Positions 8,216-59,975 are shown, counted from the stretch's first letter. The stretch is 64,000 nucleotides of DNA from Candidatus Saccharimonadota bacterium (GCA_034520885.1 JAXHNE010000009.1:2431-66430); one strand, 5' to 3'. Numbers and translations are program-made. Notes: generated from the sequence alone by a model not told the origin.

Positions 8216-9115
8216 CTAATTGGCGGGTTCTGGTTGCTGCCGTTTAGCTGCGATAGCCAAAGGAACAAGTAATGCCAGAACTGCGAAGTAAGCTAACCTA
8301 TCAATAGTTGCAGCTAAAATAATGTCTTGTGAAGACAAGCCCATTTGGTTCTGTGCTACTAGCAACATTGCTTCTCTGATCCCGATAGCTCCAGGTGTTA
8401 GTGCAACAAGGATTGAAAACTGGGATATACCGGTGTACGTAAGCAGTCCGCCTATCGAGATCTTTGCCCCCACAGCGCTTAGCTCTACACCATATGCTAG
8501 CGTGGAACCGCTTAACTGGAGCAGTGCAATTAAGAACAGACTAATAATAGGTTTTGCTTGAAAAACCACACTAACATTTCTAAGTTTGAGGTATGCGTTT
8601 GCTATGACACGAGGCTTTAATAATCTGAACAAAAATAATGCAAAGGCTAAAGCTCCAACAATTGCTAATATGAACACCAGTACACCAGCGGTACCGCTAA
8701 CTATACCCAAGCCAGATATAATAAGTAGGCCAGCTATTCCAAAAACCATAGCATATTGCATAAAAGTTAGCGCGAAGTATCGCTTGTAAGATATATTGAA
8801 GTACTTTTTCAGGTAAACACCTCTGAAGCCGAGACCACCCTGCAGAAAGCCGAAAAAATTTATCATTGATGAGTAGGCACTAACTCGCACCGCATCTATA
8901 AAAGCTACTTTATTCTTAGTAAAGTTAATGAAAAGAATAAGAAACAGTATATTGGAAAGAAATATCAGTGCCTGCCCAGCCACAACCAGAGATATCTGTG
9001 GTATGGATAAATCTGCAAGTTTTTCAAATTGCTGCTGGTTGTCAAAAAAATAGTAAAAAAAAGCAACCAGAGAGAGAACGAGCAGCAGTATTCGTATTAA
9101 CTTTTTATTTTTCAC
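8216..9115 (-). CDS. flippase-like polytopic membrane protein (LPG-synthase-TM/UPF0104-like)
   Basis: 299 aa with ~8 TM helices. Overlaps the upstream GT2 gene by 11 nt, a common GT2 + flippase-like pairing. Confidence 0.5.
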   Translation of the reverse strand: MKNKKLIRILLLVLSLVAFFYYFFDNQQQFEKLADLSIPQISLVVAGQALIFLSNILFLILFINFTKNKVAFIDAVRVSAYSSMINFFGFLQGGLGFRGVYLKKYFNISYKRYFALTFMQYAMVFGIAGLLIISGLGIVSGTAGVLVFILAIVGALAFALFLFRLLKPRVIANAYLKLRNVSVVFQAKPIISLFLIALLQLSGSTLAYGVELSAVGAKISIGGLLTYTGISQFSILVALTPGAIGIREAMLLVAQNQMGLSSQDIILAATIDRLAYFAVLALLVPLAIAAKRQQPEPAN

Positions 9116-10064
9116 GTTGTGTGTTCTCGAACTGAAGGCGCTTGTTGCGCTCTAAGTTGTTTTCGTTAATGATACGGTTGGTTTTAATCAGATCCGCAAT
9201 GACGCCCAGTACGCAGAACAGTAATCCCGCCGTGAACATGGCGACACCAAGCAGTAGTGATTGAATGTGCTGGCCGGGGTCGGTAGCGCTCACAATCAGG
9301 ATTAAATAGCGTACAAAAGGAATGGCGCTTAAAACCAGCAAAGAAACACCGGGAATGACGAAGACTTTGAGCGGTTCGTGCATAAAGTAACTTTTTAGGA
9401 TGACCCGCATGGATTTATACATGTGCTGGAAGATATTTTTAAACAGGCGTGATTTACGGGTCGGCGGGTTGGTTTTGACCGGTACGGAGGCCAGGGCGAT
9501 ACGGTTCCGCCCGGCATGGATAATGCTTTCCGTGCAGTAGCTGAAGGAGTTTACGATGTTCATTTTGAACGCCGCGTTGCGCGAGTAAGCGCGGAAGCCG
9601 CTGACGGTGTCGGGCACGTTGGTTTTGGCGGCTTTGTTGACTACCCAGCTGCCAAAGCGCTGCATGAGTTTTTTAAACGTGCCGAAATGCTGGATGGCGC
9701 CGGTTTGGCGATCGCCGATGACGATCTCCGCCTCGCCATCAATGACGGGGGTGAGCAATTTAGGGATGTCCGCCTGCGGGTACTGATTGTCGCCATCGGT
9801 GTTGACGATGATGTCCGCGCCGTTGGCTAAGCAGTAGTCCAGGCCGTCCGAAAAGGAGCGGGCCAGGCCACGATTAGTGCGGTGACGTACGAAGTGCTTA
9901 ACCCCGTGTTTTTTGGCGACTTCAACGGTTTTATCGGTGCTGCCGTCGTCGATTATCAGGATTTCTACCGAATCAACGCCCTTGATTTTTTTGGGAATGG
10001 TTTTTAGGACGAGAGGGAGGGTTTCCTCCTCGTTTAGGCACGGAATTTGTACAAACACTTTCAT
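9105..10064 (-). CDS. glycosyltransferase family 2 (polyprenyl-phosphate sugar synthase-like)
   Basis: 319 aa. MKVFVQIPCLNEE..ILIIDDGSTDKT..NTDGDNQY.. (GT-A DxD-type motifs) plus C-terminal TM helices, as in dolichyl/undecaprenyl-phosphate glycosyltransferases. Confidence 0.85.
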   Translation of the reverse strand: MKVFVQIPCLNEEETLPLVLKTIPKKIKGVDSVEILIIDDGSTDKTVEVAKKHGVKHFVRHRTNRGLARSFSDGLDYCLANGADIIVNTDGDNQYPQADIPKLLTPVIDGEAEIVIGDRQTGAIQHFGTFKKLMQRFGSWVVNKAAKTNVPDTVSGFRAYSRNAAFKMNIVNSFSYCTESIIHAGRNRIALASVPVKTNPPTRKSRLFKNIFQHMYKSMRVILKSYFMHEPLKVFVIPGVSLLVLSAIPFVRYLILIVSATDPGQHIQSLLLGVAMFTAGLLFCVLGVIADLIKTNRIINENNLERNKRLQFENTQREK

Positions 10065-10088
10065 AGGCGGGTACCCCTGTGAAAGTCA

Positions 10089-10118
10089 GGAATATGGAAT
10101 ATGGAATATGGAATATGG
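10089..10118. repeat. heptanucleotide tandem array (GGAATAT)4
   Basis: Perfect 4 units at 10089-10116 followed by GG. Lies 25 nt upstream of the GT2 start codon, which is on the minus strand. Confidence 0.95.
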
Positions 10119-10243
10119 GTAAGAACTACCTGCCTAGCTTTGTTTTTTTGTACTGCGCTGCGTCCCGTAGCAGCCTCCGGCTTGCTATCGGGATCCATGT
10201 GCGGAACTCTTGCTTTCATAGGTGGGTACCCCTATGAAAGTCA

Positions 10244-10273
10244 GGAAGATGGAATATGGAATATGGAATATGG
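10244..10273. repeat. heptanucleotide tandem array GGAAGAT(GGAATAT)3
   Basis: Read directly from the sequence. This is the second copy of the duplicated module. Confidence 0.95.
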
Positions 10274-10333
10274 GTAAGAACTACCTGTCTAGCTTTGTTT
10301 TTTTGTGCCGTATTTACGTACATAACTTTATTG

Positions 10334-11680
10334 CTATCTTCCGACTCCGACATAGGTTAAATTATATGCTTCCACGTTTGTTTTATTATAGCAGTTCATG
10401 GCGTCTATGAAGAGATCTCCCTGCATGCGTTTTTTTAATGACGGTAAGTCAATCGTTTTAAGTTCGGGCCAGTCGGTGGTGATGAATACGGCATCGGCGT
10501 TTTCGGTGGCTTTTTCCAGCGAATCACAAATTGCGACTGATTTGCGAAGGTCTTCTTTGGCTTCGCCGTTCGCTCGCGGATCGTACACGCACACCTCCGC
10601 GCCGTCATGATCCAAAATGTTGGCCAGTTTTACGCCTGGAGAGCGCCGCGAGTCGCTGGTTCCCGACTTAAAAGCCAGGCCGAGTACGGCCAATTTTTTG
10701 CCTTGGAGAGTGTCGAGTCGTTCAAGTGCTTTGTTAGCGATGTAGCCGGGCATGGATTCGTTGACGTCGGCCGCGGCGGTCATTATCGGCAAGTCCACGC
10801 CGAATTCCGTCGCGCTGCTGATCAGCCCGCTGACGTCCTTGGGAAAGCACCCGCCACCATAGCCGCGCCCGGCGTTCAAAAACGCCCGGCCAATGCGTGG
10901 ATCGGCGCCGACGGCGTCCATGACTTCCGTGACGTTAGCGCCGGCTTGATCGGCCAGTTTGGCAATGGAATTAGCGAAGGAAATCTTCATCGCCAAAAAA
11001 GCATTGGCGGTAACTTTAATGAGTTCCGCGCTGTTGCGGTTAGTGGCAATGTAGTCCCCGGCTTTTGCCACGAAGGTTATTTTTGCCCGTTTGGCGATCT
11101 CATCCCGCTTGGACTCCAGGGTTTTATACAAGTTTATAACTTCCTCTGCCGCCGGTTTATCCGAACTGCCGGCCACGATGCGGTCAAAACCGAGCGTATC
11201 GGCAATGGCGGTTCCTTCGCGTAAAAATTCCGGGTTGGATACGTAGGATACGTTTTTGCCGGCTCGTTCGAATATCTTTTCCACTGCTTCACCCGTGCCC
11301 ACCGGTACGGTGCTTTTTTGTACGTAAATGGCGCCGTCTTTAATATACTTGGCGGCTTCTTCGGCGGCGGCGTAAACGAAGCTCAAGTTGGAGCTGCCGT
11401 CCGGATTATCCGGCGTGCCGACGCAGGAAAAAATAATATCGCTCCCCGGAATCGCTTGTTCGTAATGGCCAGTGGGGAGCAGTTTTTTGGATTTTATGGC
11501 GTGGGCAATGAGCGGGTCAATGCCGTCCTCGAAAAAGAACGACTTACCGGATTGGATAGTTTTTAAACGACCGGGATTGATTTCTATCAAATGCACGGTG
11601 TGCCCGGCTTCGGCAAAAAGCGTGGCCGTCGTAAGACCGACGTACCCGGCACCAATGACCGAGATGGTTTTAGGCTTCAT
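10334..11680 (-). CDS. ugd: UDP-glucose/GDP-mannose dehydrogenase family protein (probable UDP-glucose 6-dehydrogenase)
   Basis: I trimmed the track ORF to ATG 11680 (MKPKTISVIGAGYVGLTTA = Rossmann motif). Catalytic-Cys motif GGGCFPKDV. ~448 aa. Confidence 0.8.
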   Translation of the reverse strand: MKPKTISVIGAGYVGLTTATLFAEAGHTVHLIEINPGRLKTIQSGKSFFFEDGIDPLIAHAIKSKKLLPTGHYEQAIPGSDIIFSCVGTPDNPDGSSNLSFVYAAAEEAAKYIKDGAIYVQKSTVPVGTGEAVEKIFERAGKNVSYVSNPEFLREGTAIADTLGFDRIVAGSSDKPAAEEVINLYKTLESKRDEIAKRAKITFVAKAGDYIATNRNSAELIKVTANAFLAMKISFANSIAKLADQAGANVTEVMDAVGADPRIGRAFLNAGRGYGGGCFPKDVSGLISSATEFGVDLPIMTAAADVNESMPGYIANKALERLDTLQGKKLAVLGLAFKSGTSDSRRSPGVKLANILDHDGAEVCVYDPRANGEAKEDLRKSVAICDSLEKATENADAVFITTDWPELKTIDLPSLKKRMQGDLFIDAMNCYNKTNVEAYNLTYVGVGR

Positions 11681-11764
11681 CTTTCCCAGTATACAAGGTT
11701 GTTGATTTTGAGTAATGTGCTTTTTACAAGGTAAATATATACAAAACTTTGATACCATTTAGCT

Positions 11765-12811
11765 ATGATTACAGTCATTATTGCCGGGGGATCTGGTACA
11801 CGGCTGTGGCCGCTTTCCACTCCCGACTATCCAAAACACTTATTAAAACTAAATGGTGACGAACGTTCGCTTTTACAAAACACCTATGATCGCGCAAAGC
11901 GTATTAGTGAAAAAATCTACGTTATTACCGAAAAGAGTCACGCTGACCACGTTAAGGAGCAGTTAAGTGAGCTACCCGAAGAGCATTTTATTGTCGAGCC
12001 AGCTCGTAGAGGGACTGCCAGTTGTATCGTTGCCGCCCTGGCGCACGTTAGCAAAAGAGAAGATGAGAACGAAGCCATTGCGGTGCTCTCTGCCGATCAT
12101 TTTATTCGTGACAACGCGGGATTTGCTCAAAGCTTTAAAATAGCGGGTGAAGCATCAGAAAAAGAAGGCCGCATTGTGCTGGTCGGTGTTGAGCCGGACT
12201 ATCCTGCAACCGGGTTCGGGTACATCAAGAAAGATGAGCTGTTTGACGAAGAACGTTTTGTCTACAACGTGGATTCATTTAAAGAGAAGCCGCCTTTTGA
12301 AACAGCGAAAAGGTACCTAAAGAGTGGGGACTATCTCTGGAATTGTGGCTACTTTGTTGGGTCGCTTGCAACGTTTAAAGAAAAAATGAAGCTTCGCTCC
12401 CCAGAGTTACTCGAAAATTATCAAAAGTTACTTAATGCGAAGAGTGACGATGAGTATCACGAAACGTACCTTGGCTTTAAGAACGACACTATAGATTACG
12501 GATTGATTGAGCACGTGCAGGATTTGTTGGTGGTACCCGCAGCGTTCGACTGGATGGATCTCGGATCCTTTAACGACCTACATAAGGCTGTGGTGAGTGA
12601 CGAGCAATCGAATTACATAAGCGGACAGAAAGTCGAGCTTGAAGGGGTTGACAATGCTTACGTGCATAACGCCGAAGAAAAACCAGTAGCAGTCATTGGG
12701 CTAGATAACATTGCGGTCGTTAATACGAAGGACGGTCTTTTGATTGCTCGAAAAGACCTTGCACAAAAGGTGGGGGAAGTAAGTAAACGAATTAATGGGA
12801 AAGGTAAATAG
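11765..12811 (+). CDS. manC: mannose-1-phosphate guanylyltransferase (nucleotidyltransferase domain)
   Basis: 348 aa. MITVIIAGGSGTRLWPLS signature. Divergent from ugd and first gene of a GDP-mannose module. Confidence 0.8.
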   Translation: MITVIIAGGSGTRLWPLSTPDYPKHLLKLNGDERSLLQNTYDRAKRISEKIYVITEKSHADHVKEQLSELPEEHFIVEPARRGTASCIVAALAHVSKREDENEAIAVLSADHFIRDNAGFAQSFKIAGEASEKEGRIVLVGVEPDYPATGFGYIKKDELFDEERFVYNVDSFKEKPPFETAKRYLKSGDYLWNCGYFVGSLATFKEKMKLRSPELLENYQKLLNAKSDDEYHETYLGFKNDTIDYGLIEHVQDLLVVPAAFDWMDLGSFNDLHKAVVSDEQSNYISGQKVELEGVDNAYVHNAEEKPVAVIGLDNIAVVNTKDGLLIARKDLAQKVGEVSKRINGKGK

Positions 12812-13578
12812 TGAGGAAAGTAATAACTTTTGACCTCGACGATACGTTGGCGGTCACCAAATCGCCAATCACCGATAAGATGGCTCGCTTGCTGGAAGAA
12901 TTATTAGAACACCACCAGGTGTGTATTATTTCCGGTGGTCGGTTCGAGCAATTCCAAAAACAGGTTATTGATAACTTAAAAATCGAACACCACTTTTTGC
13001 TTAATTTACATATTATGCCAACTTGTGGGACGCGCTACTATCGATTTAACGATATTGATCAAGAATGGAAGCTCCTTTATGCGGAAGATATACCTCAAAA
13101 AGATAAACAGCGAATAATTGATGCGCTGACACGTGCCGCGAAAGAAACTGGTTTTTTGGAAAAAAATCCCCATGGAGAAATCGTTGAAGACAGGGGAAGT
13201 CAAATCACATTTTCCGCCTGTGGTCAGCAAGCCCCGCCGGAGGTAAAATACAAATGGGATCCCGATACTAAAAAAAGACAAAAAATTCGAGAAAAAGTGA
13301 TTCATGAAATCGATGATTACGAAATCAGGATTGGTGGAACGACGTCCATCGACGTTACCAAACCGGGCATTGACAAGGCTTACGGCATGGAAAAGCTTAT
13401 GAGTGTCCTGGAGATCGGCAAAGACGACATATTATTTATTGGCGACAAGCTCGAAGAAGGCGGAAATGACTATCCGGTAAAAGCAATGGGTATTGATACG
13501 ATCGCCGTCGAGGGGTGGGAGGATGCCGCACTTGTCATTGAAACCATCAATAAATTGGCTCGTAACTCCGATGAATAA
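12811..13578 (+). CDS. HAD-IIB phosphatase/phosphomannomutase-like protein
   Basis: 255 aa with a GTG start overlapping the manC stop (TAGTG). HAD motif I FDLDDTLA and later GDKLEEGGNDYP (motif IV). Resembles eukaryotic-type PMM. Confidence 0.7.
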   Translation: MRKVITFDLDDTLAVTKSPITDKMARLLEELLEHHQVCIISGGRFEQFQKQVIDNLKIEHHFLLNLHIMPTCGTRYYRFNDIDQEWKLLYAEDIPQKDKQRIIDALTRAAKETGFLEKNPHGEIVEDRGSQITFSACGQQAPPEVKYKWDPDTKKRQKIREKVIHEIDDYEIRIGGTTSIDVTKPGIDKAYGMEKLMSVLEIGKDDILFIGDKLEEGGNDYPVKAMGIDTIAVEGWEDAALVIETINKLARNSDE

Positions 13579-14074
13579 ACAAGAAAAATTAAAACAAGTA
13601 AAGCAAGATTTAATTCTGCCCAAGCAGTACACATTGGCAGATGTTGATGAGCATAAACCTTGGGGCGCGTACTATCGTCTGGCCGATGAACATGCGGAAG
13701 CATTCGTGGGAGAATACTTTCCGAAACGCTCAGTCGAAGAGCTTGGACGTGGAGGCAGTTTAAGCCCCAAATTTTTGGTTTTTGAGCCCGGCAAAAAGTT
13801 GAGCCTACAATATCATGTGTATAGAGCAGAGATATGGCGAGTCATATCGGGTACTTTGACCGCGACCGTTTCTGAATCGGACGAAGAAGGGGAATGGCAA
13901 AATTATACTGAAGGTGAAGAGTTGTCTTACGGTGCCTTGATGAGGCATCGTGCAGGTGCACCAAGCGATGGTGATTGGTGTATTGTTGCAGAAATTTGGC
14001 AACATACGGATGCAGATAACCCTACAAGCGAAGAAGATATTATTCGTCTAAAAGATGATTTTGGGCGCGCATAA
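13571..14074 (+). CDS. cupin-domain protein (type II phosphomannose isomerase C-terminal-like)
   Basis: I trimmed the track ORF to ATG 13571, which overlaps the upstream stop. Contains ..DEHKPWGAYYRLA.., a cupin core (LSLQYHVYRAEIWRV) and ..RHRAGAP... Confidence 0.6.
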   Translation: MNKQEKLKQVKQDLILPKQYTLADVDEHKPWGAYYRLADEHAEAFVGEYFPKRSVEELGRGGSLSPKFLVFEPGKKLSLQYHVYRAEIWRVISGTLTATVSESDEEGEWQNYTEGEELSYGALMRHRAGAPSDGDWCIVAEIWQHTDADNPTSEEDIIRLKDDFGRA

Positions 14075-14079
14075 TTTAA

Positions 14080-14589
14080 ATGAAAAAGACGGAAGAAAAT
14101 GAGCTGGTGGATCTCCTCAAAAGACTAAACCCTGGCTTTTTGCCCTACCCAATATTTGAACAAATTGCACGACTTACGGCCCTGTCGATTATTGAATTCG
14201 TCCCACTGCGCATAAATAAAAGCCAAAATATAGAGGTGTTGCTTTTGGACAGAGAAGGAGATGATCCCATCTGGCCGAATAAAGTGCATACTCCTGGTAC
14301 CGTTATCCGACCAGGCGATAATGAGGGCAATCAATACGTTGCTTTTGAACGAATAGTCAAAGACGAACTAAAAGATACTAAAATATCAGAGCCGCACTTT
14401 GTGGGCAGTCTATTGCATAAAAGCAAGCGTGGGACTGAGCATGCCCAAATTTACTGGGTAGAGGTTTTGGGAGAGCCAAAAAATGGAAGTTTTTTCGAAG
14501 CGAATAAATTACCAGAAACACTCATCTCCTCACAAAGAAAATTTATTAACCAAGCTGTCAAGTCCTTCCGTGACAACCGTCGACTCTGA
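14080..14589 (+). CDS. Nudix-fold-like protein (degenerate Nudix box)
   Basis: 169 aa. The ..VLLLDREGDDPIWPNKVHTPGTVIRPGD...AFERIVKDELKD.. layout resembles the Nudix fold, but the canonical GX5EX7REUXEEXGU box is not intact. Confidence 0.35.
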   Translation: MKKTEENELVDLLKRLNPGFLPYPIFEQIARLTALSIIEFVPLRINKSQNIEVLLLDREGDDPIWPNKVHTPGTVIRPGDNEGNQYVAFERIVKDELKDTKISEPHFVGSLLHKSKRGTEHAQIYWVEVLGEPKNGSFFEANKLPETLISSQRKFINQAVKSFRDNRRL

Positions 14590-14620
14590 TGCCTAAACTT
14601 ACATGCTAGTATAGGAATAT

Positions 14621-15514
14621 ATGCAGAAACGTATTATTAAAAAGGCGGTGATCGCCGCTGCAGGATTCGGGACGCGGTTTTTGCCGCAAACCAAGGCCAT
14701 GCCCAAGGAAATGCTGCCACTGGTGGACACGCCGATTATCCAATACATTGTGGAGGAGCTGGTGGGCTCCGGTGTGGAAGATATCGTGATTGTCACGGGA
14801 TACCACAAACGTTCCATTGAAGACCATTTTGATCATATGAGTACTGATCTTCGGCAAAATCTAAAACAGGGCGGCAAGCTTGAATTGCTTGAAGAAACAA
14901 AAAAGATTAGTGAGCTAGCTAACTTTGCCTACGTACGCCAGAAAGGCCCGTACGGCAACGCCACGCCACTGATGTGCGCCGAACACTTGCTGGGTGACGA
15001 ACCGTTTTATTACGCCTTTGCCGACGATTTCGTAAAAGCCGATCCCAGCCGGTTCAAACAACTTTTGGAGGTGCACTGGGAACACGGCGGCACGGTGCTA
15101 ACCTGCGTACGGGCGCAAAATGAGCAAGATTACAAACGCTACGGCTTCGTTGCCGGTGAGGAAGTTACTCCAAGCTTGATGCAAGCTAAAAACATCATCG
15201 AAAAACCCGGATCGCGCGAAAAGGCGGGATCTGACTTTGCCACGGTAAGCGGGTACATTATTGATCCGGCGATCTTTCCGTACTTGCACGAGAAAAAGAA
15301 GCACCTAAAAGAAGGTGAAGAGTTCATCATGCAAACCGCCATGCAAGACATGATTGAAGAAGGCCATAAGATCTTCGGTTGCGAAGTGCAAAATGGTACG
15401 TTTTACGATGCGGGTAATAAACTGGATTACATGAAAACCATCGTGGATTTCGCGCTCGCCCGCGAAGATATCGGCGAAGATTTTAAAAACTATCTTAAAG
15501 CCAAGCTACAGTAA
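14621..15514 (+). CDS. galU: UTP--glucose-1-phosphate uridylyltransferase
   Basis: 297 aa. AVIAAAGFGTRFLPQTKAMPKEMLPLVDTPIIQY signature. Confidence 0.9.
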   Translation: MQKRIIKKAVIAAAGFGTRFLPQTKAMPKEMLPLVDTPIIQYIVEELVGSGVEDIVIVTGYHKRSIEDHFDHMSTDLRQNLKQGGKLELLEETKKISELANFAYVRQKGPYGNATPLMCAEHLLGDEPFYYAFADDFVKADPSRFKQLLEVHWEHGGTVLTCVRAQNEQDYKRYGFVAGEEVTPSLMQAKNIIEKPGSREKAGSDFATVSGYIIDPAIFPYLHEKKKHLKEGEEFIMQTAMQDMIEEGHKIFGCEVQNGTFYDAGNKLDYMKTIVDFALAREDIGEDFKNYLKAKLQ

Positions 15515-15535
15515 AACGAACATTGCTGACCAAGC

Positions 15536-16891
15536 CTACAAGCAGCTTTGAACTTTGCGAATAAGTTGATCGAGTTCTTTTTTGGTCTTTGCCTCGGCGT
15601 TCAGGCGCATGACCGGTTCAGTGTTACTGGCGCGAAGATTAAACCACGTGGATTTATCGATCCACACAGTGAGGCCGTCTAATTCGTCGAAATCCGCGTC
15701 CTCGAAGATTTGTTTTAGTTTCGCAAAAACCTTCGTTTTATCAACATTGGTTTTAATATTTATTTCCTGAGGCATTTCGTAGCGCCTGTATTCATCAACG
15801 AGCTCAGAAAGTTTTTTGCCACTATCAGTGAGTGCTTGCATAGCAACAAGCGCAGTAATCAGCCCGGAATCGGCGTCATAGTTTTCCGTGAAAAACATGT
15901 GTCCCGTGGTTTCGCCACCAAACGGAGCACCGACTTTGCGCATGAGAGAGCCTATATTAACACGACCCGCCTTGGTGCGTACCGGTTCGCCGCCCCACTC
16001 CCTAATGAGTTCTTGTGTCGCTTTGCTAGTGCGTACGTCGTGCACGATCTTTGCGCCCGGATATTTTTGCAAATACCGCTTAGCGATAATCGACATTAAA
16101 TCAGTGCCCAAAACAGGCCGACCTTGATCGTCGACAAAAACCGCACGATCTCCGTCGCCGTCAAACGCAATACCGAAATCCAACTGGTTTTTAGTTATTT
16201 CACCAGTAAGGTCTCGTAAGTTTTCTACCTTTTGCGGGTTGGCTTCGTGATTCGGGAAGCTACCGTCAAGTTCAAAGTACATATTTTTCGAACGGATTGG
16301 CAGTTTCGATAAAATAGCGGGAAGGATTTCTCCGGCCATACCATTTCCGGCGTCAATAGCGACGTTGAAACCACTCAATTCGTCAATAAAACCAAGGCAA
16401 TGATCAACCCACTCTTCTGTAATTGACTTATGGGAAACAGAGCCTTGCTCTTTCGTGTCTTGAGGAACTTCATTGGCTATAAATTTGTCTCGAATTTCTG
16501 ACAATCCGGCATCCAGGCCAATGGCAATGACTTGATCACGGTATAGTTTAATTCCGTTATCTTTGCCGGGGTTATGACTGGCAGTAATAACCGCACCGCC
16601 GGCTAGATTCCATTTGCCGACGGCGAAGTAGATCATATCACTGGTTACCAAGCCGATATCCCACACATCGTAACCCTGCGATATAAGTCCGCTAATAAAT
16701 GATTGTGCCAAATCTTTTGAGTCGGCACGCATGTCATGCCCAACGGCCACTATACCTTTTTCAGGGAGCCAGTTCGCATAGCAACGGGCAATTTTTTCGA
16801 CGGTATCAGTCGTTAGTTGATCGCCGACTGTGCCACGGATATCGTATGATTTAAAAATTTCCGAAATGTCTTGCATGGTTCCATTGTACAC
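15536..16891 (-). CDS. phosphoglucomutase/phosphomannomutase (alpha-D-phosphohexomutase)
   Basis: 451 aa. Active-site loop TASHNPGKDNGIK and metal loop FDGDGDR. Confidence 0.9.
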   Translation of the reverse strand: MYNGTMQDISEIFKSYDIRGTVGDQLTTDTVEKIARCYANWLPEKGIVAVGHDMRADSKDLAQSFISGLISQGYDVWDIGLVTSDMIYFAVGKWNLAGGAVITASHNPGKDNGIKLYRDQVIAIGLDAGLSEIRDKFIANEVPQDTKEQGSVSHKSITEEWVDHCLGFIDELSGFNVAIDAGNGMAGEILPAILSKLPIRSKNMYFELDGSFPNHEANPQKVENLRDLTGEITKNQLDFGIAFDGDGDRAVFVDDQGRPVLGTDLMSIIAKRYLQKYPGAKIVHDVRTSKATQELIREWGGEPVRTKAGRVNIGSLMRKVGAPFGGETTGHMFFTENYDADSGLITALVAMQALTDSGKKLSELVDEYRRYEMPQEINIKTNVDKTKVFAKLKQIFEDADFDELDGLTVWIDKSTWFNLRASNTEPVMRLNAEAKTKKELDQLIRKVQSCL

Positions 16892-16900
16892 AAATCGGGT

Positions 16901-17908
16901 TTAAAGCGTTTTTTGCCAGCGCCAGGCGTCCGCCAGGGCATCATGAAGCGATTTTTCCGACTTCCAGCCCAGTAATTTTTTGGCCTTTTCGGAGCCGGCG
17001 TAGGTGGCGACGATGTCTCCTTCCCGCGGCGGCCCGATTTTGTAAGGAAGTTTTTTGCCGGTAGCTTGCCGGAAGGCCGTGATGACCTCCAGTACGCTGC
17101 TGCCTTTACCGGTGCCGATATTGCACGTTTCGTAAGTGGAACCTTTTTGGCCGTTGGCCCACTTAAGGGCGGCTACGTGGGCTTTGGCCAGGTCGACCAC
17201 ATGGATGTAGTCGCGTATACAGGTGCCGTCCGGGGTCGGGTAGGTGTCTCCGTGTACCGTAAGTTCCGGCCGTATGCCGGCCGCGGTTTGGGTAATGAAC
17301 GGGATTAGGTTCGCCGGCGTGCCAATCGGCAGCTCCCCGATAAGGGCACTGGGGTGGGCGCCAATGGGATTAAAGTATCGCAGGGCGATGGACGTGAGAC
17401 GTTTGCTGGCTTTGGTGGTGTCTTGAAGGATGGTTTCATCCATTTGTTTGGTGGCGCCGTATGGCGAGGTGGCGGGTTTGGTTGGCGCCTCTTCGGTGAC
17501 GGGCAGATCGTCCGGTTCGCCGTAAACCGTGCAGGAGGAAGAAAACACGAAGTTTTTTACGGAGGCTTCTTCCACGGCTTTAAGCAGGGTGATAAGCCCC
17601 GCGACGTTATTTTGGTAATAGTCCAGAGGTTTTTGCACTGATTCGCCGACCGCTTTATGCGCGGCGAAGTGAATAACTCCTTCTACCGCGTGATCTTTCA
17701 GGAGCTTTCTTAAAAACGACTCATCTTGGTAGTCGTTTTCATAGGAGGTAATATCTGAACCGGTAATTTCATTTAAGCGGTCAATGACCTGCCGATCGGA
17801 GTTTGAAAAGTTATCTACGATTATTGGCCGGTAGCCGGCGTTGACCAGTTCCACGACCGTATGCGAACCAATGAACCCGGCGCCTCCGGTAACCAAGATG
17901 TTCTTCAT
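16901..17908 (-). CDS. galE: UDP-glucose 4-epimerase
   Basis: 335 aa. VTGGAGFIGSH NAD motif and YGATK catalytic motif (SPYGATKQM). Confidence 0.9.
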   Translation of the reverse strand: MKNILVTGGAGFIGSHTVVELVNAGYRPIIVDNFSNSDRQVIDRLNEITGSDITSYENDYQDESFLRKLLKDHAVEGVIHFAAHKAVGESVQKPLDYYQNNVAGLITLLKAVEEASVKNFVFSSSCTVYGEPDDLPVTEEAPTKPATSPYGATKQMDETILQDTTKASKRLTSIALRYFNPIGAHPSALIGELPIGTPANLIPFITQTAAGIRPELTVHGDTYPTPDGTCIRDYIHVVDLAKAHVAALKWANGQKGSTYETCNIGTGKGSSVLEVITAFRQATGKKLPYKIGPPREGDIVATYAGSEKAKKLLGWKSEKSLHDALADAWRWQKTL

Positions 17909-19092
17909 TTTTTGCCCTTTGAACCAATTCGTTTTAGGTGGGCTTTTATGGCTTGGCGGAAATGTTTTTGGTCAAATTGCCGGGCGGTTTTGGATATGGC
18001 GCCCGGGTCAAAGGAGTGGTCGGGAAATTGTCGCAATACCCGTACGAGCGAGTCGACGGTTTGTTCCTTGAAAAACGTACCGGTTTTGCCCTCGATCACG
18101 TAATCCAGGGCGCCGCCGGCTTGGTAGGCGATTACCGGGGTGCCGGAGGCCATGGCTTCTACCGGCGCGATCCCGAAATCTTCCAGGCTGGCGAAAATAA
18201 AGGCTTTGGCGGACGCCAGAGATTCTTCAATTTCTTGGTTGGTGGCGTTGTCGTTAAAGGTGATCGTATCGCCGGCAATGCGTTTTAAGTTGCCCAGTTC
18301 CGGGCCGTAGCCAATGACGGTGAGGGGGAGTTTTAACTGATTACAGGCTTGGATGATGAGGTCGGTGCGTTTGTTGGGGACGAGACGCCCCACAGTCACG
18401 AAGCCACGCTTCTTGGAAGATGGAATATGGAAGGTGGAATTTGAGAAGCGGGAGGTGTCTACCGGGGGGTGGATGACGGTTGAGTCGCGACCGTAGTATT
18501 TTTTGATGTCACTTTGAATGTGCGTGGAGTTGGCGATAAAATAATCAACCTTTTGCGCCGCTTGGTAGTCACGTTCGCGCAATGGTTTTACCAGTAACTT
18601 GAGCCCGATCCGGACGAGCCATTTCGGCCGAAAGCCGGGATTTTTAAGGTAGTTGTCGTAGTGCCGCCAGTAGAAGTGGACCGGGGAATGGCAATAACAT
18701 ACATGCAACGGGCGTTGCATGTTGGAAGATGGAAGTTGGAAGTTGGAAGATGGCGAAACGAATTTGGCTTCTCCGTTACCGCTGGAGCTGATTATCAGAT
18801 CGTAGTCACTTAAATCCAGCTTTTTGAACCAACGTTGCCGGAGTAATGGTAAAAACTTCCGAAGCCGGGAGAACGGCCACTTTTGCAAGTATCCGGTTAC
18901 TACTTTGCCATCTAATTTATCGCGCCACTCATCACTGCAGTAAGAGGTGTAAATCGGCGCTTCCGGAAACATTTTATGGAGTTCCAAAACAACCTGTTCA
19001 GCACCGCCTCCCAAAAGCCAATCGTGGGCTATCGCAACCTTCAGGTTGCGCGTGGAAGGTGGAAGGTGGAAGGTGGAAGGTGGTTGTTTCAT
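17905..19092 (-). CDS. glycosyltransferase family 4 carrying three in-frame heptamer-array insertions
   Basis: 395 aa. Core ..KVAIAHDWLLGGGAEQV.., ..LHVCYCHSP.. and ..EDFGIAPVEAMASGTPVIA... Repeat-encoded segments are MKQPPSTFHLPPSTRN (N-terminus), SPSSNFQLPSSNMQ and NSTFHIPSSKK. The start overlaps the stop of the upstream gene (ATGA). Confidence 0.85.
   Translation of the reverse strand: MKQPPSTFHLPPSTRNLKVAIAHDWLLGGGAEQVVLELHKMFPEAPIYTSYCSDEWRDKLDGKVVTGYLQKWPFSRLRKFLPLLRQRWFKKLDLSDYDLIISSSGNGEAKFVSPSSNFQLPSSNMQRPLHVCYCHSPVHFYWRHYDNYLKNPGFRPKWLVRIGLKLLVKPLRERDYQAAQKVDYFIANSTHIQSDIKKYYGRDSTVIHPPVDTSRFSNSTFHIPSSKKRGFVTVGRLVPNKRTDLIIQACNQLKLPLTVIGYGPELGNLKRIAGDTITFNDNATNQEIEESLASAKAFIFASLEDFGIAPVEAMASGTPVIAYQAGGALDYVIEGKTGTFFKEQTVDSLVRVLRQFPDHSFDPGAISKTARQFDQKHFRQAIKAHLKRIGSKGKK
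18400..18448. repeat. hairpin (GAAGC-CAC-GCTTC) + degenerate heptamer array TGGAAGA TGGAATA TGGAAGG TGGAATT TGAGAAG
   Basis: Read directly from the sequence. Lies inside the GT4 CDS, in frame. Confidence 0.8.
18703..18753. repeat. hairpin (ATGCAACG-GG-CGTTGCAT) + heptamer array TGGAAGA TGGAAGT TGGAAGT TGGAAGA TGG
   Basis: Read directly from the sequence. Lies inside the GT4 CDS, in frame. Confidence 0.9.
19033..19083. repeat. hairpin (CGCAACCT-TC-AGGTTGCG) + perfect heptamer array (TGGAAGG)4 TGG
   Basis: Read directly from the sequence. The array occupies codons 4-13 of the GT4 gene, starting 9 nt after its ATG. Confidence 0.95.
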
Positions 19093-19448
19093 CGAAGTGG
19101 TCTCATGAATGCGTTTAGTAATTTTTGAACCGAAACACTTTCTTTAAGCAACTCACTCAATTCATCATCGTTGACGTAGTCAAGCCTATTAGCTAAATAC
19201 AAAAAGTTCTTTGTCTCAAGTGCTGAGCCGTACGCTATGACGAAAAAGTGTAGCTTGTCTTTCTTTGTTTGCCTTCCGAAGCCCTCCGAAATATTCGCGG
19301 AGATTGATGAAACTGAACGCCTGATCTGTGAAGTTAACCCGAAACGCTCCTCAGAAGGAAATTTTTTCGTTACTCTATAGACGCTTACGGCCCAATCCTG
19401 CGCTTTTCGCCAAACTTCAAGATCTTCGAATGATTCAATTCGTGCCAT
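19089..19448 (-). CDS. four-helix-bundle protein (23S rRNA intervening-sequence protein / Avd family)
   Basis: 119 aa. MARIESFEDLEVWRKAQDWAV...QIRRSVSSISANISEGFGR...ALETKNFLYLA matches the family known as PF05635/TIGR02436. Confidence 0.85.
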   Translation of the reverse strand: MARIESFEDLEVWRKAQDWAVSVYRVTKKFPSEERFGLTSQIRRSVSSISANISEGFGRQTKKDKLHFFVIAYGSALETKNFLYLANRLDYVNDDELSELLKESVSVQKLLNAFMRPLR

Positions 19449-19491
19449 ATTCCACCTTCCATATTCTACCCTCCGTGATGCTTCGCATCAC
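19447..19491. repeat. inverted-orientation heptamer array + hairpin (GTGATGC-TTC-GCATCAC)
   Basis: On the minus strand this reads GTGATGC GAA GCATCAC GGAGGGT AGAATAT GGAAGGT GGAATAT G. It contains the RBS-like GGAGG/AAGGTGG and the ATG of the four-helix-bundle gene. The outer hairpin arm contains the TGA stop of the upstream sugar transferase. Confidence 0.85.
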
Positions 19492-20912
19492 TTGGCTCCG
19501 GTTCCGAGGAGCACCACCCGGATGGTGCGCAGGAGGATGCTGATATCCAGTACGAAGCTCCAGTTTTGTACGTAGTAGACGTCCAGGCGACGGCGTTCTT
19601 CGAAGCTGATGTCCTCCCGACCGGAAATTTGCGCCAAACCGGTAATGCCGGCTTTTACGCTTAAAATGGCGTGTTTTCGTTTGTAAGTGTTAAGCTCCGC
19701 CGGTATGAGGGTGCGCGGCCCGACGAGGCTGAGATCGCCCAGGATAACGTTAAATAACTGGGGGAGTTCGTCCAGGCTGGTGCGGCGCAAGAAACGCCCG
19801 ACTTTACTGATGCGCGGGTCTTTGGCGAGCACGTAACCGTTGTTTTTGTAAGTTTCGTACAGCTTGGGTTTGCCGAGTTTTTTAAAGGCGGCTTTATCGG
19901 AGAGGCCGCTAATGTCCGCGCGGTGCGTTCGGAATTTAAATACTTTGAATTCACGATTAAAGCGCGTCAGGCGAACTTGGCGGAAGAACACCGGTCCGCG
20001 CGGGTCGCTGATTTTTAGAACGACGGCGATCACGGCAATTACCGGTGAAAGCACGATAAGAGCTAACGAAGTAAAGAAAAGATCGAACAGGCGTTTGGCG
20101 ATGCGCCCCCAGCCGATGAGCTTGGTTTGGTGCACGGCGATCATGGGCAGGCCGGCGAATAAATCCACCTCGATATTGCCCACGAACAAGTTGCTGTTGC
20201 CGGGCATGAACCGATAGGACACGTGGTTTTCTTGGGCGAAGCGCACGATCTCGTTGTTTTTTAGGTCGTCCTTATACAGTTCGGTATGAATAATTCCGTG
20301 CGGGTGGGAGGGCAGTTTTTTGATGGCATCCTCGAAACTGGCGAAGTATTTAAACCGCGGGCTTTTTTTGCCAACGATACCCATGACGCGAATACCGCTG
20401 GTTTTGGTATCCGAAATGATGCGGGCCAGGTCGATGCTGGCGTCCGTGTTGCCGATGATCAGTACGTCACTAATGCCGACCTTAAAGCGGAATAATAGAC
20501 GGCGCAGTATTCGCGTCGCGGTGCGAAACAGCAGCAAAAGGCCAAAACTTAAACCGAAGCCGTAGACGGGCACCAAACGGGCGGGAAACAACTCTCCGCC
20601 GATTACGAAATCGTAGCCGATGACCACCAAAATGCCAATGAACGCCCCGGTAATGAGCCGGCCGAGTTCCACGAAGCGTTTTTCGTAAATGTCTTTTCGG
20701 TATAAGCCGATAGCGGCGTGCACCAGCAGCCAAAACGGCAGTACGGCCAGGAAGGTATACAGGAATTCCAAGGCGGTTATTTGCTCGATAAGCGGTAGTT
20801 CGTCCTGGACTTTTACGCGGATGGTGTAAGCCACGCTGAAGGCGGCGGTGAGGGCGAGAGCGTCGCCGATAACTAAAATCAGTGAGTAGAAAACCGAGGC
20901 ATTATTGCGCAT
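19488..20912 (-). CDS. polyprenyl-phosphate hexose-1-phosphate transferase (WbaP/WcaJ-type priming sugar transferase)
   Basis: 474 aa. N-terminal TM helices plus the C-terminal bacterial sugar transferase domain (..RIAKRLFDLFFTSLALIVLSPV..DELPQLFNVILGDLSLVGPR..). RBS GAGGAGG lies upstream. Confidence 0.9.
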   Translation of the reverse strand: MRNNASVFYSLILVIGDALALTAAFSVAYTIRVKVQDELPLIEQITALEFLYTFLAVLPFWLLVHAAIGLYRKDIYEKRFVELGRLITGAFIGILVVIGYDFVIGGELFPARLVPVYGFGLSFGLLLLFRTATRILRRLLFRFKVGISDVLIIGNTDASIDLARIISDTKTSGIRVMGIVGKKSPRFKYFASFEDAIKKLPSHPHGIIHTELYKDDLKNNEIVRFAQENHVSYRFMPGNSNLFVGNIEVDLFAGLPMIAVHQTKLIGWGRIAKRLFDLFFTSLALIVLSPVIAVIAVVLKISDPRGPVFFRQVRLTRFNREFKVFKFRTHRADISGLSDKAAFKKLGKPKLYETYKNNGYVLAKDPRISKVGRFLRRTSLDELPQLFNVILGDLSLVGPRTLIPAELNTYKRKHAILSVKAGITGLAQISGREDISFEERRRLDVYYVQNWSFVLDISILLRTIRVVLLGTGAK

Positions 20913-38248: not shown

Positions 38249-38290
38249 AATAATACTAGAATTAATACTAGTATTAATTCTAGTATTATT
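38249..38290. repeat. 42-bp perfect AT-rich palindrome
   Basis: AATAATACTAGAATTAATACTAGTATTAATTCTAGTATTATT is its own reverse complement, centred on ACTAGT. It overlaps the stop codon (38286-38288) of the minus-strand gene. Confidence 0.95.
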
Positions 38291-59845: not shown

Positions 59846-59975
59846 ATAAATCTGAAATCTGAATACAGAAACTAGAAACAAATCTGAAACCCAAAACCTA
59901 AAACTCAAAATGTTTCTAATTTGATGTTTGTAATTTCTAGTTTGTTTACTATTTCGTGCTTCGTATTTCATGTTT
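59846..59975. repeat. AT-rich region with 7-nt periodicity: A-rich heptamer run followed by its T-rich inverted counterpart
   Basis: AAATCTG AAATCTG AATACAG AAACTAG AAACAAA TCTGAAA CCCAAAA CCTAAAA CTCAAAA TG, then TTTCTAA TTTGATG TTTGTAA TTTCTAG TTTGTTT ACTATTT CGTGCTT CGTATTT CATGTTT. Confidence 0.75.

Follow-up and report, generated by a model that had tools for sequence, protein, structure and literature searches.

Results

Heptamer Arrays in a Surface-Glycan Locus

The DNA analyzed here, referred to below as the window, is a 64,000-nucleotide stretch from a Candidatus Saccharibacteria metagenome-assembled genome, in which positions 1-25 kb are a surface-glycan locus. Our subject is a cassette within that locus, bounded by short tandem arrays of a heptamer and carrying a gene of the 23S rRNA intervening-sequence protein (IVP, also S23p) family, together with four solo arrays of the same kind close by. 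All the genes concerned, i.e., those for GT2, UDP-glucose dehydrogenase, GT4, IVP, and the sugar transferase Bac_transf, lie on the minus strand (Table 1). An earlier reading made without knowledge of the origin of the DNA (the sequence-only reading) had described six units here, each a hairpin next to a (TGGAANN)n array. All six were present at the positions it gave, as judged by Tandem Repeats Finder (TRF) and by base-by-base reading, far above the level expected by chance. The pattern GGAANNTGGAANNTGGAA (TGGAANN x3, with at most one mismatch) had 12 matches, all within 10089-19467 (0.01 expected), and no shuffled sequence reached 12. Within the 64-kb window, TGGAANN arrays were confined to 10-19.5 kb, and the heptamer varied only at positions 6 and 7 (G/T and A/G/T, respectively), the GGAA core being invariant. 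Rfam returned no relevant RNA family in 9-21 kb, and there was no rRNA in that interval.

The six units, which the sequence-only reading had listed as copies of one element, are not equivalent. The cassette has the arrays of copies 5 and 6 as its terminal inverted repeats, with the IVP gene, which that reading had not connected with the arrays, between them. Copies 1 and 2 are a single 94-nt unit duplicated 155 nt apart (96% identical), and are therefore not independent of each other. The hairpin of copy 3 (18400-18412) has only 5 bp and is weak by itself.

An IVP Cassette with Inverted Heptamer-Array Ends

The cassette (19033-19491, minus strand) consists of an outer hairpin, a heptamer array, the IVP gene, an inverted heptamer array, and a second outer hairpin. 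Three array-to-array inverted repeats (I4, I8, and I11) link 19445-19474 with 19052-19083; the flank-to-flank inverted score was 18, against a shuffle mean of 8.7, and the two arrays were paired in a predicted RNA fold (z = -3.3). The cargo protein matched PF05635 (E = 2e-38) and TIGR02436 (E = 8e-36), as well as the PDB entries 2gsc (E = 3.5e-17) and 2rld, with five chains each, while its match to the Avd model of diversity-generating retroelements (DGRs) was below the curated cutoff.

Both the Shine-Dalgarno (SD)-like GGAGG and the ATG with which the IVP gene starts come from the left terminal array. At the other end, the GT4 ATG overlaps the IVP stop codon (ATGA at 19089-19092), and the right array is in frame with the host open reading frame (ORF), being translated as PPSTFHLPPST, the new N terminus of GT4; GT4 therefore remains expressed and gains an N-terminal extension encoded by the repeat. 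Where genomes lack the cassette, the stop codon of Bac_transf and the start of GT4 overlap by 4 nt (ATGA or GTGA), and the cassette therefore occupies exactly that junction. Homologues of the left outer hairpin with covarying arms were found at loci L004 (GTGAGGCgaaGCCTCAC), L008, and L005.

IVP Genes in Other Genomes Are Flanked by Tandem Arrays

For comparison we used 80 orthologous GT4 loci, and array and hairpin statistics were taken over 81 Saccharibacteria loci. A profile search of the 81 loci returned 15 IVP genes, every one of them directly upstream of GT4 and flanked by tandem arrays. Seven further Saccharibacteria cassettes had the same array-flanked layout, two of them at another site, between GtrA and a LexA-like gene, where the same right end as at GT4, ATGAAACAR followed by an array, precedes the LexA-like gene in other Saccharibacteria. 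The Saccharibacteria cassette thus has at least two insertion sites. At this second junction (L210, 245-274; L201, 2497-2918), one genome carried a perfect solo (CTGTGTA)4.3 beside a degenerate AATGATA-type array, and other genomes carried there a full IVP cassette with TGGAANN-type arrays.

On metagenome contigs chosen by their TGGAANN arrays, all four IVP genes adjoined tandem arrays, which in two of the four cases were unrelated to the search pattern. We also sampled ten plasmid IVP genes spread down a tblastn ranking (Picosynechococcus, Nostoc, Anabaena, Pseudanabaena, Calothrix, Geminocystis, Riemerella, Gemmatirosa, and Azospirillum, the last a genuine 23S rRNA intervening sequence, or IVS). 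All ten were flanked by period-7 or period-8 arrays, eight of them visibly by an inverted pair of one unit; the Azospirillum 23S rRNA IVS had heptamer-array ends as in the window cassette, and several of the sampled cassettes lay inside cas operons. When 34 IVP genes spanning Saccharibacteria, cyanobacteria, Bacteroidota, Gemmatimonadota, and the Azospirillum IVS were compared with 1195 control ORFs, flank-to-flank inverted complementarity exceeded the 95th percentile of the controls in 30.

A contig resembling the candidate phyla radiation (CPR), L150, is an independent replication of the pattern in another lineage. At 1819-2900 it carries an IVP gene with inverted 8-mer arrays (AAAAACTC / TTTGAGTT), directly upstream of trmD, and within trmD itself there are two heptamer arrays in frame; after each comes a hairpin whose distal arm consists of conserved TrmD codons (CTCAATAT, encoding PQY, and TTTTGTT). 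A tie between the pattern and glycan function is not supported: such cassettes also occur in cas operons, beside trmD, and in rRNA genes.

The cassettes of L223, L225, and L226 (plasmids of Picosynechococcus PCC 7003, Anabaena sp. 90, and Pseudanabaena galeata) are in CRISPR-cas operons, at cas10/cmr3 and cas6/cas4. The Anabaena 90 cassette has an upstream array of about 300 nt, and its right array, (CTGTCAC)4.3, is read through in frame by the annotated N terminus of Cas4. Back-to-back inverted heptamer pairs without a cargo gene were seen on five metagenome contigs (L081, L085, L146, L167, and L189), with a perfect central palindrome in L085 (GGGGAAGAGC/GCTCTTCCCC); they may be empty versions of the cassette.

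The Cassette as a Unit of Transfer

Between L001 and L004, the cassette of about 460 bp, including its arrays and hairpin, was 97-100% identical, whereas the GT4 bodies were only 55-80% identical and the upstream flanks were unrelated (a toxin-antitoxin pair versus Bac_transf). A near-identical cassette beside a diverged GT4 and unrelated flanks shows it to be a discrete unit, transferred recently and moving between genomes as such. In L001 (1-800 and 2424-3554), the neighbors of the cassette and GT4 are, on one side, a PIN-type toxin-antitoxin pair and, on the other, an AAA ATPase, instead of the usual Bac_transf/Wzy surroundings.

Two Solo Arrays Are In-Frame Inserts in GT4

Of the four solo copies, two are in frame in loops of GT4 and two are in the duplicated leader before GT2. 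The GT4 reading frame is open through all three of its arrays; copy 3 encodes SNSTFHIPSSKK in the inter-domain linker, and copy 4 encodes SPSSNFQLPSSNMQR. Among the 80 orthologous loci, insert-free proteins start with MKVAIVHDW and have linkers of 8-10 amino acids at site 2 and 19-20 at site 3, compared with 12-42 in array-bearing linkers at these sites. The short linkers and plain start of the array-free orthologues uphold the proposal that the arrays were inserted, rather than grown locally as microsatellites. Many other Saccharibacteria orthologues had inserts at these three positions too, and their peptides of seven-residue periodicity differed (e.g., SNIKYQIS and KLKIENR); they represent different heptamers read in three frames.

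Across the 81 loci there were 52 period-7 arrays with at least three copies, against 11 of period 6 at the same 21-nt minimum and 6 of period 9. The interval comprising IVP and GT4, 10.5% of the sequence, held 36 of the 52. All but three were 21-35 nt long (about 4-4.5 units), their lengths breaking off sharply near 33 nt, and arrays were more similar within a locus than between loci (p < 0.0002).

Junction Hairpins with an Arm of Host Sequence

The sequence-only reading had placed a hairpin at every array, one arm being host sequence and the other its inverted copy, and we ran a control for chance adjacency. Among the 52 heptamer arrays, 15 abutted a perfect hairpin with a stem of 6 bp or more, where random placement would give 2.7 (maximum of 11 in 2000 trials), and 8 abutted one of 8 bp or more, where 0.28 would be expected. 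Adjacency was therefore enriched, but only about 30% of the arrays had a clear hairpin. In the window the distal arm was indeed host sequence, comprising the ATG of GT2, the GT4 codons for KVA, PLHV, and GF, and the TGA of the sugar transferase.

At the GT4 start, a hairpin of at least 6 bp with its 3' arm in the first GT4 codons was found in 11 of 20 cassette-bearing loci and in 4 of 60 cassette-free loci (p = 1.3e-5). The hairpin at this junction is thus tied to the presence of the cassette, its proximal arm being absent from insert-free orthologues, and we rejected the view that hairpins were pre-existing insertion targets at this position, the four in cassette-free loci being short. At sites 2 and 3, insert-free orthologues occasionally had hairpins of 6-8 bp, and pre-existing small palindromes are therefore possible as targets there. 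At site 2 of insert-free loci (e.g., L046, L064, L038, and L019), a small palindrome (GTGCCaaaaGGCAC and variants) codes for the ancestral linker V-P-K-G-T and coincides exactly with the array insertion point of other lineages.

Hairpin arms at the GT4 start varied by lineage and tracked the local codons (e.g., AATCGCCACG/CGTGGCGATT, AACAATCACCACG/CGTGGTGATTGTT, AATCGCAATTgaaAATTGCGATT, CAAAGCCACgaGTGGCTTTG, and CGCAACCTgaAGGTTGCG). Three of these junctions (L001, L004, and L213) were loop-less, i.e., perfect palindromes of 18-26 nt, which argues for inverted duplication at the DNA level over a selected RNA stem. Defects in stems were C.A and A.G mismatches, not G.U wobbles. The fold-back process suggested earlier is supported at several junctions, where host codons form loop-less perfect palindromes, although the hairpin is not universal.

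The heptamer GCGAAGC, which forms an unusually stable DNA mini-hairpin, occurred at six independent array junctions (window 19478-19488; L004 9608-9618; L002, L005, and L001). Two further ideas were tried and rejected. A universal G-rich-strand (telomerase-like) polarity is true of the six window copies but reversed in the subfamily of L011, L014, and L024. An origin of the heptamer from inverted host flank is not claimed: in the window, CCACCTT agrees with CAACCTT, the reverse complement of host AAGGTTG, at six of seven positions in register, and elsewhere agreement was at chance level. Array purity against hairpin length, as a signal of age, gave a weak trend only (Spearman p = 0.12).

Coordinates of the Features

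Table 1. Genes, hairpins, and arrays of the locus in window coordinates (period-7 arrays as found by TRF)
Feature	Position	Strand	Description
GT2 host gene	9105-10064	-	ATG inside distal arm of copy 1 hairpin
Copy 1 hairpin	10058-10085	-	CTTTCATAGG(8)CCTGTGAAAG; one mismatch; holds GT2 ATG
Copy 1 94-nt unit	10058-10151	-	hairpin, TGA, (GGAATAT)4.3 at 10089-10118, conserved 33-nt A-rich segment; repeat family D3
52-amino-acid ORF	10061-10219		from copy 2 ATGAAAG through copy 1 array; ATGA stop overlaps GT2 ATG
Copy 2 hairpin	10213-10240		CTTTCATAGG(8)CCTATGAAAG
Copy 2 94-nt unit	10213-10306	-	array 10244-10273; upstream of copy 1 in sense direction
UDP-glucose dehydrogenase	10334-11758	-	
GT4 host gene	17905-19092	-	395 amino acids; three in-frame arrays; array-free orthologues about 360 amino acids
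Copy 3, GT4 site 3	18400-18440	-	GAAGC-cac-GCTTC at 18400-18412; degenerate array 18414-18440 (18414-18439 by TRF)
Copy 4, GT4 site 2	18701-18753	-	ACATGCAACG-gg-CGTTGCATGT at 18701-18722; (TGGAAGA)4.4 at 18723-18753
Copy 5 hairpin	19033-19050	-	CGCAACCT-tc-AGGTTGCG; right outer junction; outer arm GT4 codons K-V-A, inner arm inverted copy
Copy 5 array	19052-19083	-	right terminal array; (GTGGAAG)4.6 on plus strand, CCTTCCA on sense strand
IVP cargo gene (23S_rRNA_IVP / S23p, Avd-like)	19089-19448	-	119-amino-acid four-helix-bundle protein
Copy 6 array	19445-19474	-	left terminal array; sense GGAGGGTAGAATATGGAAGGTGGAATATGG; inverted relative to other arrays
Copy 6 hairpin	19475-19491	-	GTGATGC-ttc-GCATCAC; left outer junction; mRNA sense GUGAUGCgaaGCAUCAC; outer arm contains Bac_transf TGA
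Bac_transf sugar transferase	19488-20912	-	in cassette-free genomes, stop overlaps GT4 start (ATGA/GTGA)

The 52-amino-acid ORF is a product of the 155-nt duplication. A 61-nt spacer in the same region is perhaps the leftover 5' end of another gene.

Discussion

Taken as a whole, the explanation that we favor, and to which we give slightly better than even credence, is that the locus carries a single selfish cassette of the IVS type and, in addition, its right end four times over as orphan copies. The solo arrays are read as orphan right ends because heptamer family, orientation, and a length of about 30 nt are common to them and to that end. In the operon transcript, the two cassette arrays would pair into a helix of about 27 bp, as suggested by the Coxiella IVS and the predicted fold; RNase III would remove this helix, and the outer hairpins would then cap the ends of the host RNA. 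The four solo arrays were probably written into nearby DNA by one and the same DNA-level process, and would have been kept only where they preserved the frame in tolerant loops, or in the leader. The junction hairpins would be inverted duplications of the first 5-13 host bases beside the array. Such palindromic junctions could come from an opened hairpin-capped DNA end or from intrastrand (quasi-palindrome) template switching, and the latter would also keep the arms perfect while the host codons change.

Several observations weigh against this explanation. About 70% of arrays lack a clear hairpin, cyanobacterial cassettes show no evident outer hairpins, and an 8-bp hairpin is present at site 3 of the array-free orthologue L042. 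In some genomes (L005 and L150), the solo arrays use another heptamer than the cassette ends, and the link between cassette and solo arrays could come partly from the shared ancestry of the loci. The putative processing by RNase III is extrapolated from a single organism and a single predicted fold. There is a possible TGA on either side of the window cassette, but nothing consistent in L004 or L210, so that a consistent target-site duplication was not found at these three places; likewise, the ORFs scanned around the cassette (window 0-29 kb) included no transposase, recombinase, or reverse transcriptase. Ongoing activity cannot be demonstrated, because near-identical contigs from different samples (sets of six, three, and three; L204-L209, L201/L203, and L210-L212) had no array polymorphism. 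When recent insertions were sought between close GT4 alleles, a single pair in the 120 homologues was as much as 80% identical.

The cassette shares several properties with the 23S rRNA IVSs that carry an S23p ORF (Leptospira, Coxiella, and Brucella; Warrier et al., 2016, PMC4990558), which are regarded as selfish and horizontally transferred: the cargo family (PF05635/TIGR02436), inverted terminal repeats able to pair with each other across the ORF, and tandem heptamers just before the ORF start that contain a purine-rich, SD-like stretch. In Coxiella, two to three GACAGAT repeats, varying in number among strains, precede the S23p ORF, and RNase III cuts the IVS at the first heptamer (PMC4990558). 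Unlike these IVSs, which lie in helix 25 or 45 of 23S rRNA, the window cassette is located between protein-coding genes of a glycan operon (Bac_transf and GT4). Its right array is translated in the downstream protein, its outer hairpins come from host codons, and solo arrays stand in the neighboring ORF; RNase III excision is, in the window, a prediction.

The sequence-only reading had recognized no described bacterial repeat class in the element, but the arrays do belong to one: repeats of the short tandemly repeated repetitive (STRR) or heptanucleotide long simple sequence repeat (LSSR) type are known, and the Coxiella heptamers upstream of S23p are published (PMC4990558). Cyanobacterial STRRs, LSSRs (Mrazek 2007, via PMC4679880), and TAACTGA repeats (MacGregor 2015) have in common with the window arrays that they are short tandem heptamers of 2-6 or more copies, with a unit characteristic of the genome, often a few nucleotides upstream of start codons. 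They are occasionally inside ORFs at protein termini, and their mobility is suspected but unproven. The window arrays differ from them in that they occur in opposite orientation on either side of a gene, and also as in-frame insertions within internal loops of a protein. The STRR and TAACTGA reports make no mention of IVP/S23p genes, MacGregor (2015) reports no association of heptamers with adjacent hairpins or inverted host duplications, and, apart from the Coxiella IVS (PMC4990558), we found no literature tying STRRs or heptamers to four-helix-bundle genes.

Three other systems offer partial parallels. Foldback (FB) elements of Drosophila have inverted ends made of short tandem subrepeats. 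As in such elements and in miniature inverted-repeat transposable elements, our cassettes have inverted ends of tandem units, with and without cargo (cargo-less: L081, L085, L146, and L189), and near-identical copies occur in different contexts (L001/L004; the two Saccharibacteria sites); unlike them, the window cassette is bacterial, has ends of only about 30 nt, and lacks an identified transposase (window 0-29 kb) or a clear target-site duplication. Inverted duplication of flanking bases is also produced at P-nucleotide-like junctions, from hairpin-capped DNA ends, and by bacterial quasi-palindrome template switching; as here, some of these are perfect and loop-less, with the arm sequence set by the flank, although our arms, at 5-13 nt, exceed the length of typical P nucleotides. 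We know of no hairpin-forming enzyme for these elements. Rickettsia palindromic elements (about 100-150 bp) are inserted in frame into protein genes and, like the solo arrays, are small repeats at tolerant surface positions of conserved enzymes; unlike them, the solo arrays are 30-nt heptamer tracts linked to an IVP gene.

Other explanations can be set against this material. That the arrays are contingency loci, with slippage-prone heptamers that switch GT4 and GT2 and so vary the surface glycan, and only an incidental link to the cassette, we consider unlikely. The tracts are either inside glycosyltransferase genes or a short way upstream of them; on/off switching would follow because seven is not a multiple of three, a change of one unit inside GT4 shifting the frame, and there are precedents in the heptanucleotide tract of E. 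coli K1 NeuO and the 7-bp tracts of Haemophilus HMW genes. Copy number does differ between L001 and L004 at two sites, and between Coxiella strains (two versus three heptamers). However, the sole differences between L001 and L004 were of exactly three units (21 nt), which keeps the frame, the near-identical contigs from different samples had no length variation, and short tracts of about four units with a ceiling near 33 nt are unlike slippage-driven length distributions. Also left unexplained are the inverted pairs at IVP genes, the host-derived hairpins, and the architecture at cas, trmD, and rRNA genes. Phase variation is possible as a by-product, but the polymorphism observed gives it no support. 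Slightly less likely is a regulatory function without mobility, in which the arrays bind a protein (possibly the pentameric IVP) or a complementary RNA that controls downstream translation, the hairpins being start-codon-sequestering structures selected at the RNA level (compare the proposal made for the TAACTGA repeats of Beggiatoaceae). This would fit the way in which arrays abut the starts of GT2, IVP, and GT4, the GT2 ATG lying within a 10-bp stem, as well as the heptamers of MacGregor (2015), mostly one or a few nucleotides upstream of start codons, and the pentameric state of IVP homologues beside arrays of about 4.5 units. It does not fit arrays deep inside ORFs (sites 2 and 3, and trmD), stem defects that are C.A and A.G rather than G.U, or transfer of the cassette as a unit, and the loop-less palindromes of L001, L004, and L213 cannot form RNA hairpins without breaking pairs.

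We hold it less likely still that the junctions arose by break repair independent of any element, with fold-back synthesis and reiterated heptamers (snap-back or telomerase-like) and the IVP gene as a passenger. At both cassette ends, the 3'-ending host strand reads host, inverted copy, array, the order that 3'-end extension would give; the extended strand in the window is G-rich, and some junctions are palindromes with no loop. Against this, the G-rich polarity is reversed in the subfamily already mentioned, and array flanks at 30 of 34 IVP genes across phyla are unlike a chance passenger. Moreover, because the cassette and its arrays are 97-100% conserved in two genomes, the arrays travel with the gene and are not made anew at each junction. 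DGR-like retrohoming, in which the Avd-like IVP and a distant reverse transcriptase would copy an array template into targets and the hairpin 3' of the array would act as the DGR target hairpin, seems to us very improbable. In the sense of the genes the layout is array then hairpin, with loops often GAA or GAAA, and there is a weak match of IVP to the DGR Avd model and, for some homologues, to PF22296 (bAvd). In the DGR of Bordetella phage the order is variable region (VR), initiation of mutagenic homing site, and hairpin, which appears to resemble this layout. The Avd match is, however, below the curated cutoff, no reverse transcriptase was present among the ORFs scanned in the window (0-29 kb), there is no pair of template region and VR, the adenines of GGAA never vary, and arrays of about 30 nt are far below DGR repeat length.

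What is new in our preferred explanation is an IVS-type S23p cassette with heptamer-array ends inside a protein-coding operon, accompanied by in-frame orphan arrays whose palindromic junctions come from host sequence; the kinds to which these belong, IVS elements and STRR-type repeats, were already known. Across cyanobacteria, Bacteroidota, and CPR bacteria, few genes of unknown function are as common as those for S23p/IVP four-helix-bundle proteins. If the arrays are indeed the ends of IVP cassettes, these genes and the heptamer repeats, for whose spread MacGregor (2015) could identify no mechanism, would be jointly explained as a selfish intervening element tolerated in operons. A non-coding repeat has been turned repeatedly into in-frame peptide inserts in the same loops of a conserved enzyme, generating protein length variation in symbionts with minimal genomes. 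There is also a consequence for annotation, in that gene callers extend or mis-start genes through the arrays (the N termini of GT4, Cas4, and LexA-like proteins). A wider generalization is speculative, and we think it more doubtful than probable: IVP (S23p, Avd-like pentamer) cassettes might be a widespread, uncharacterized class of bacterial mobile element with heptamer ends of about 30 nt, which are cut at the array boundary via hairpin-capped or fold-back intermediates and could write orphan arrays in cis as in-frame inserts. Such a class would give STRRs, TAACTGA-type repeats, and 23S rRNA IVSs a common origin.

Two other groups of tandem repeats were seen in the window. An intergenic region at 59848-59936, with no IVP gene nearby, contains (AAATCTG)2.3, (AAACCCA)3.4, and a 14-mer present 1.9 times, enclosed by an imperfect inverted repeat (cagaaactagaaacaaatctg ... 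tttgtaatttctagtttgttt); these units are unlike TGGAANN. At 38251-38288 there is a tandem 12-mer, (TAATACTAGTAT)3.2, which is not related to the heptamer arrays.

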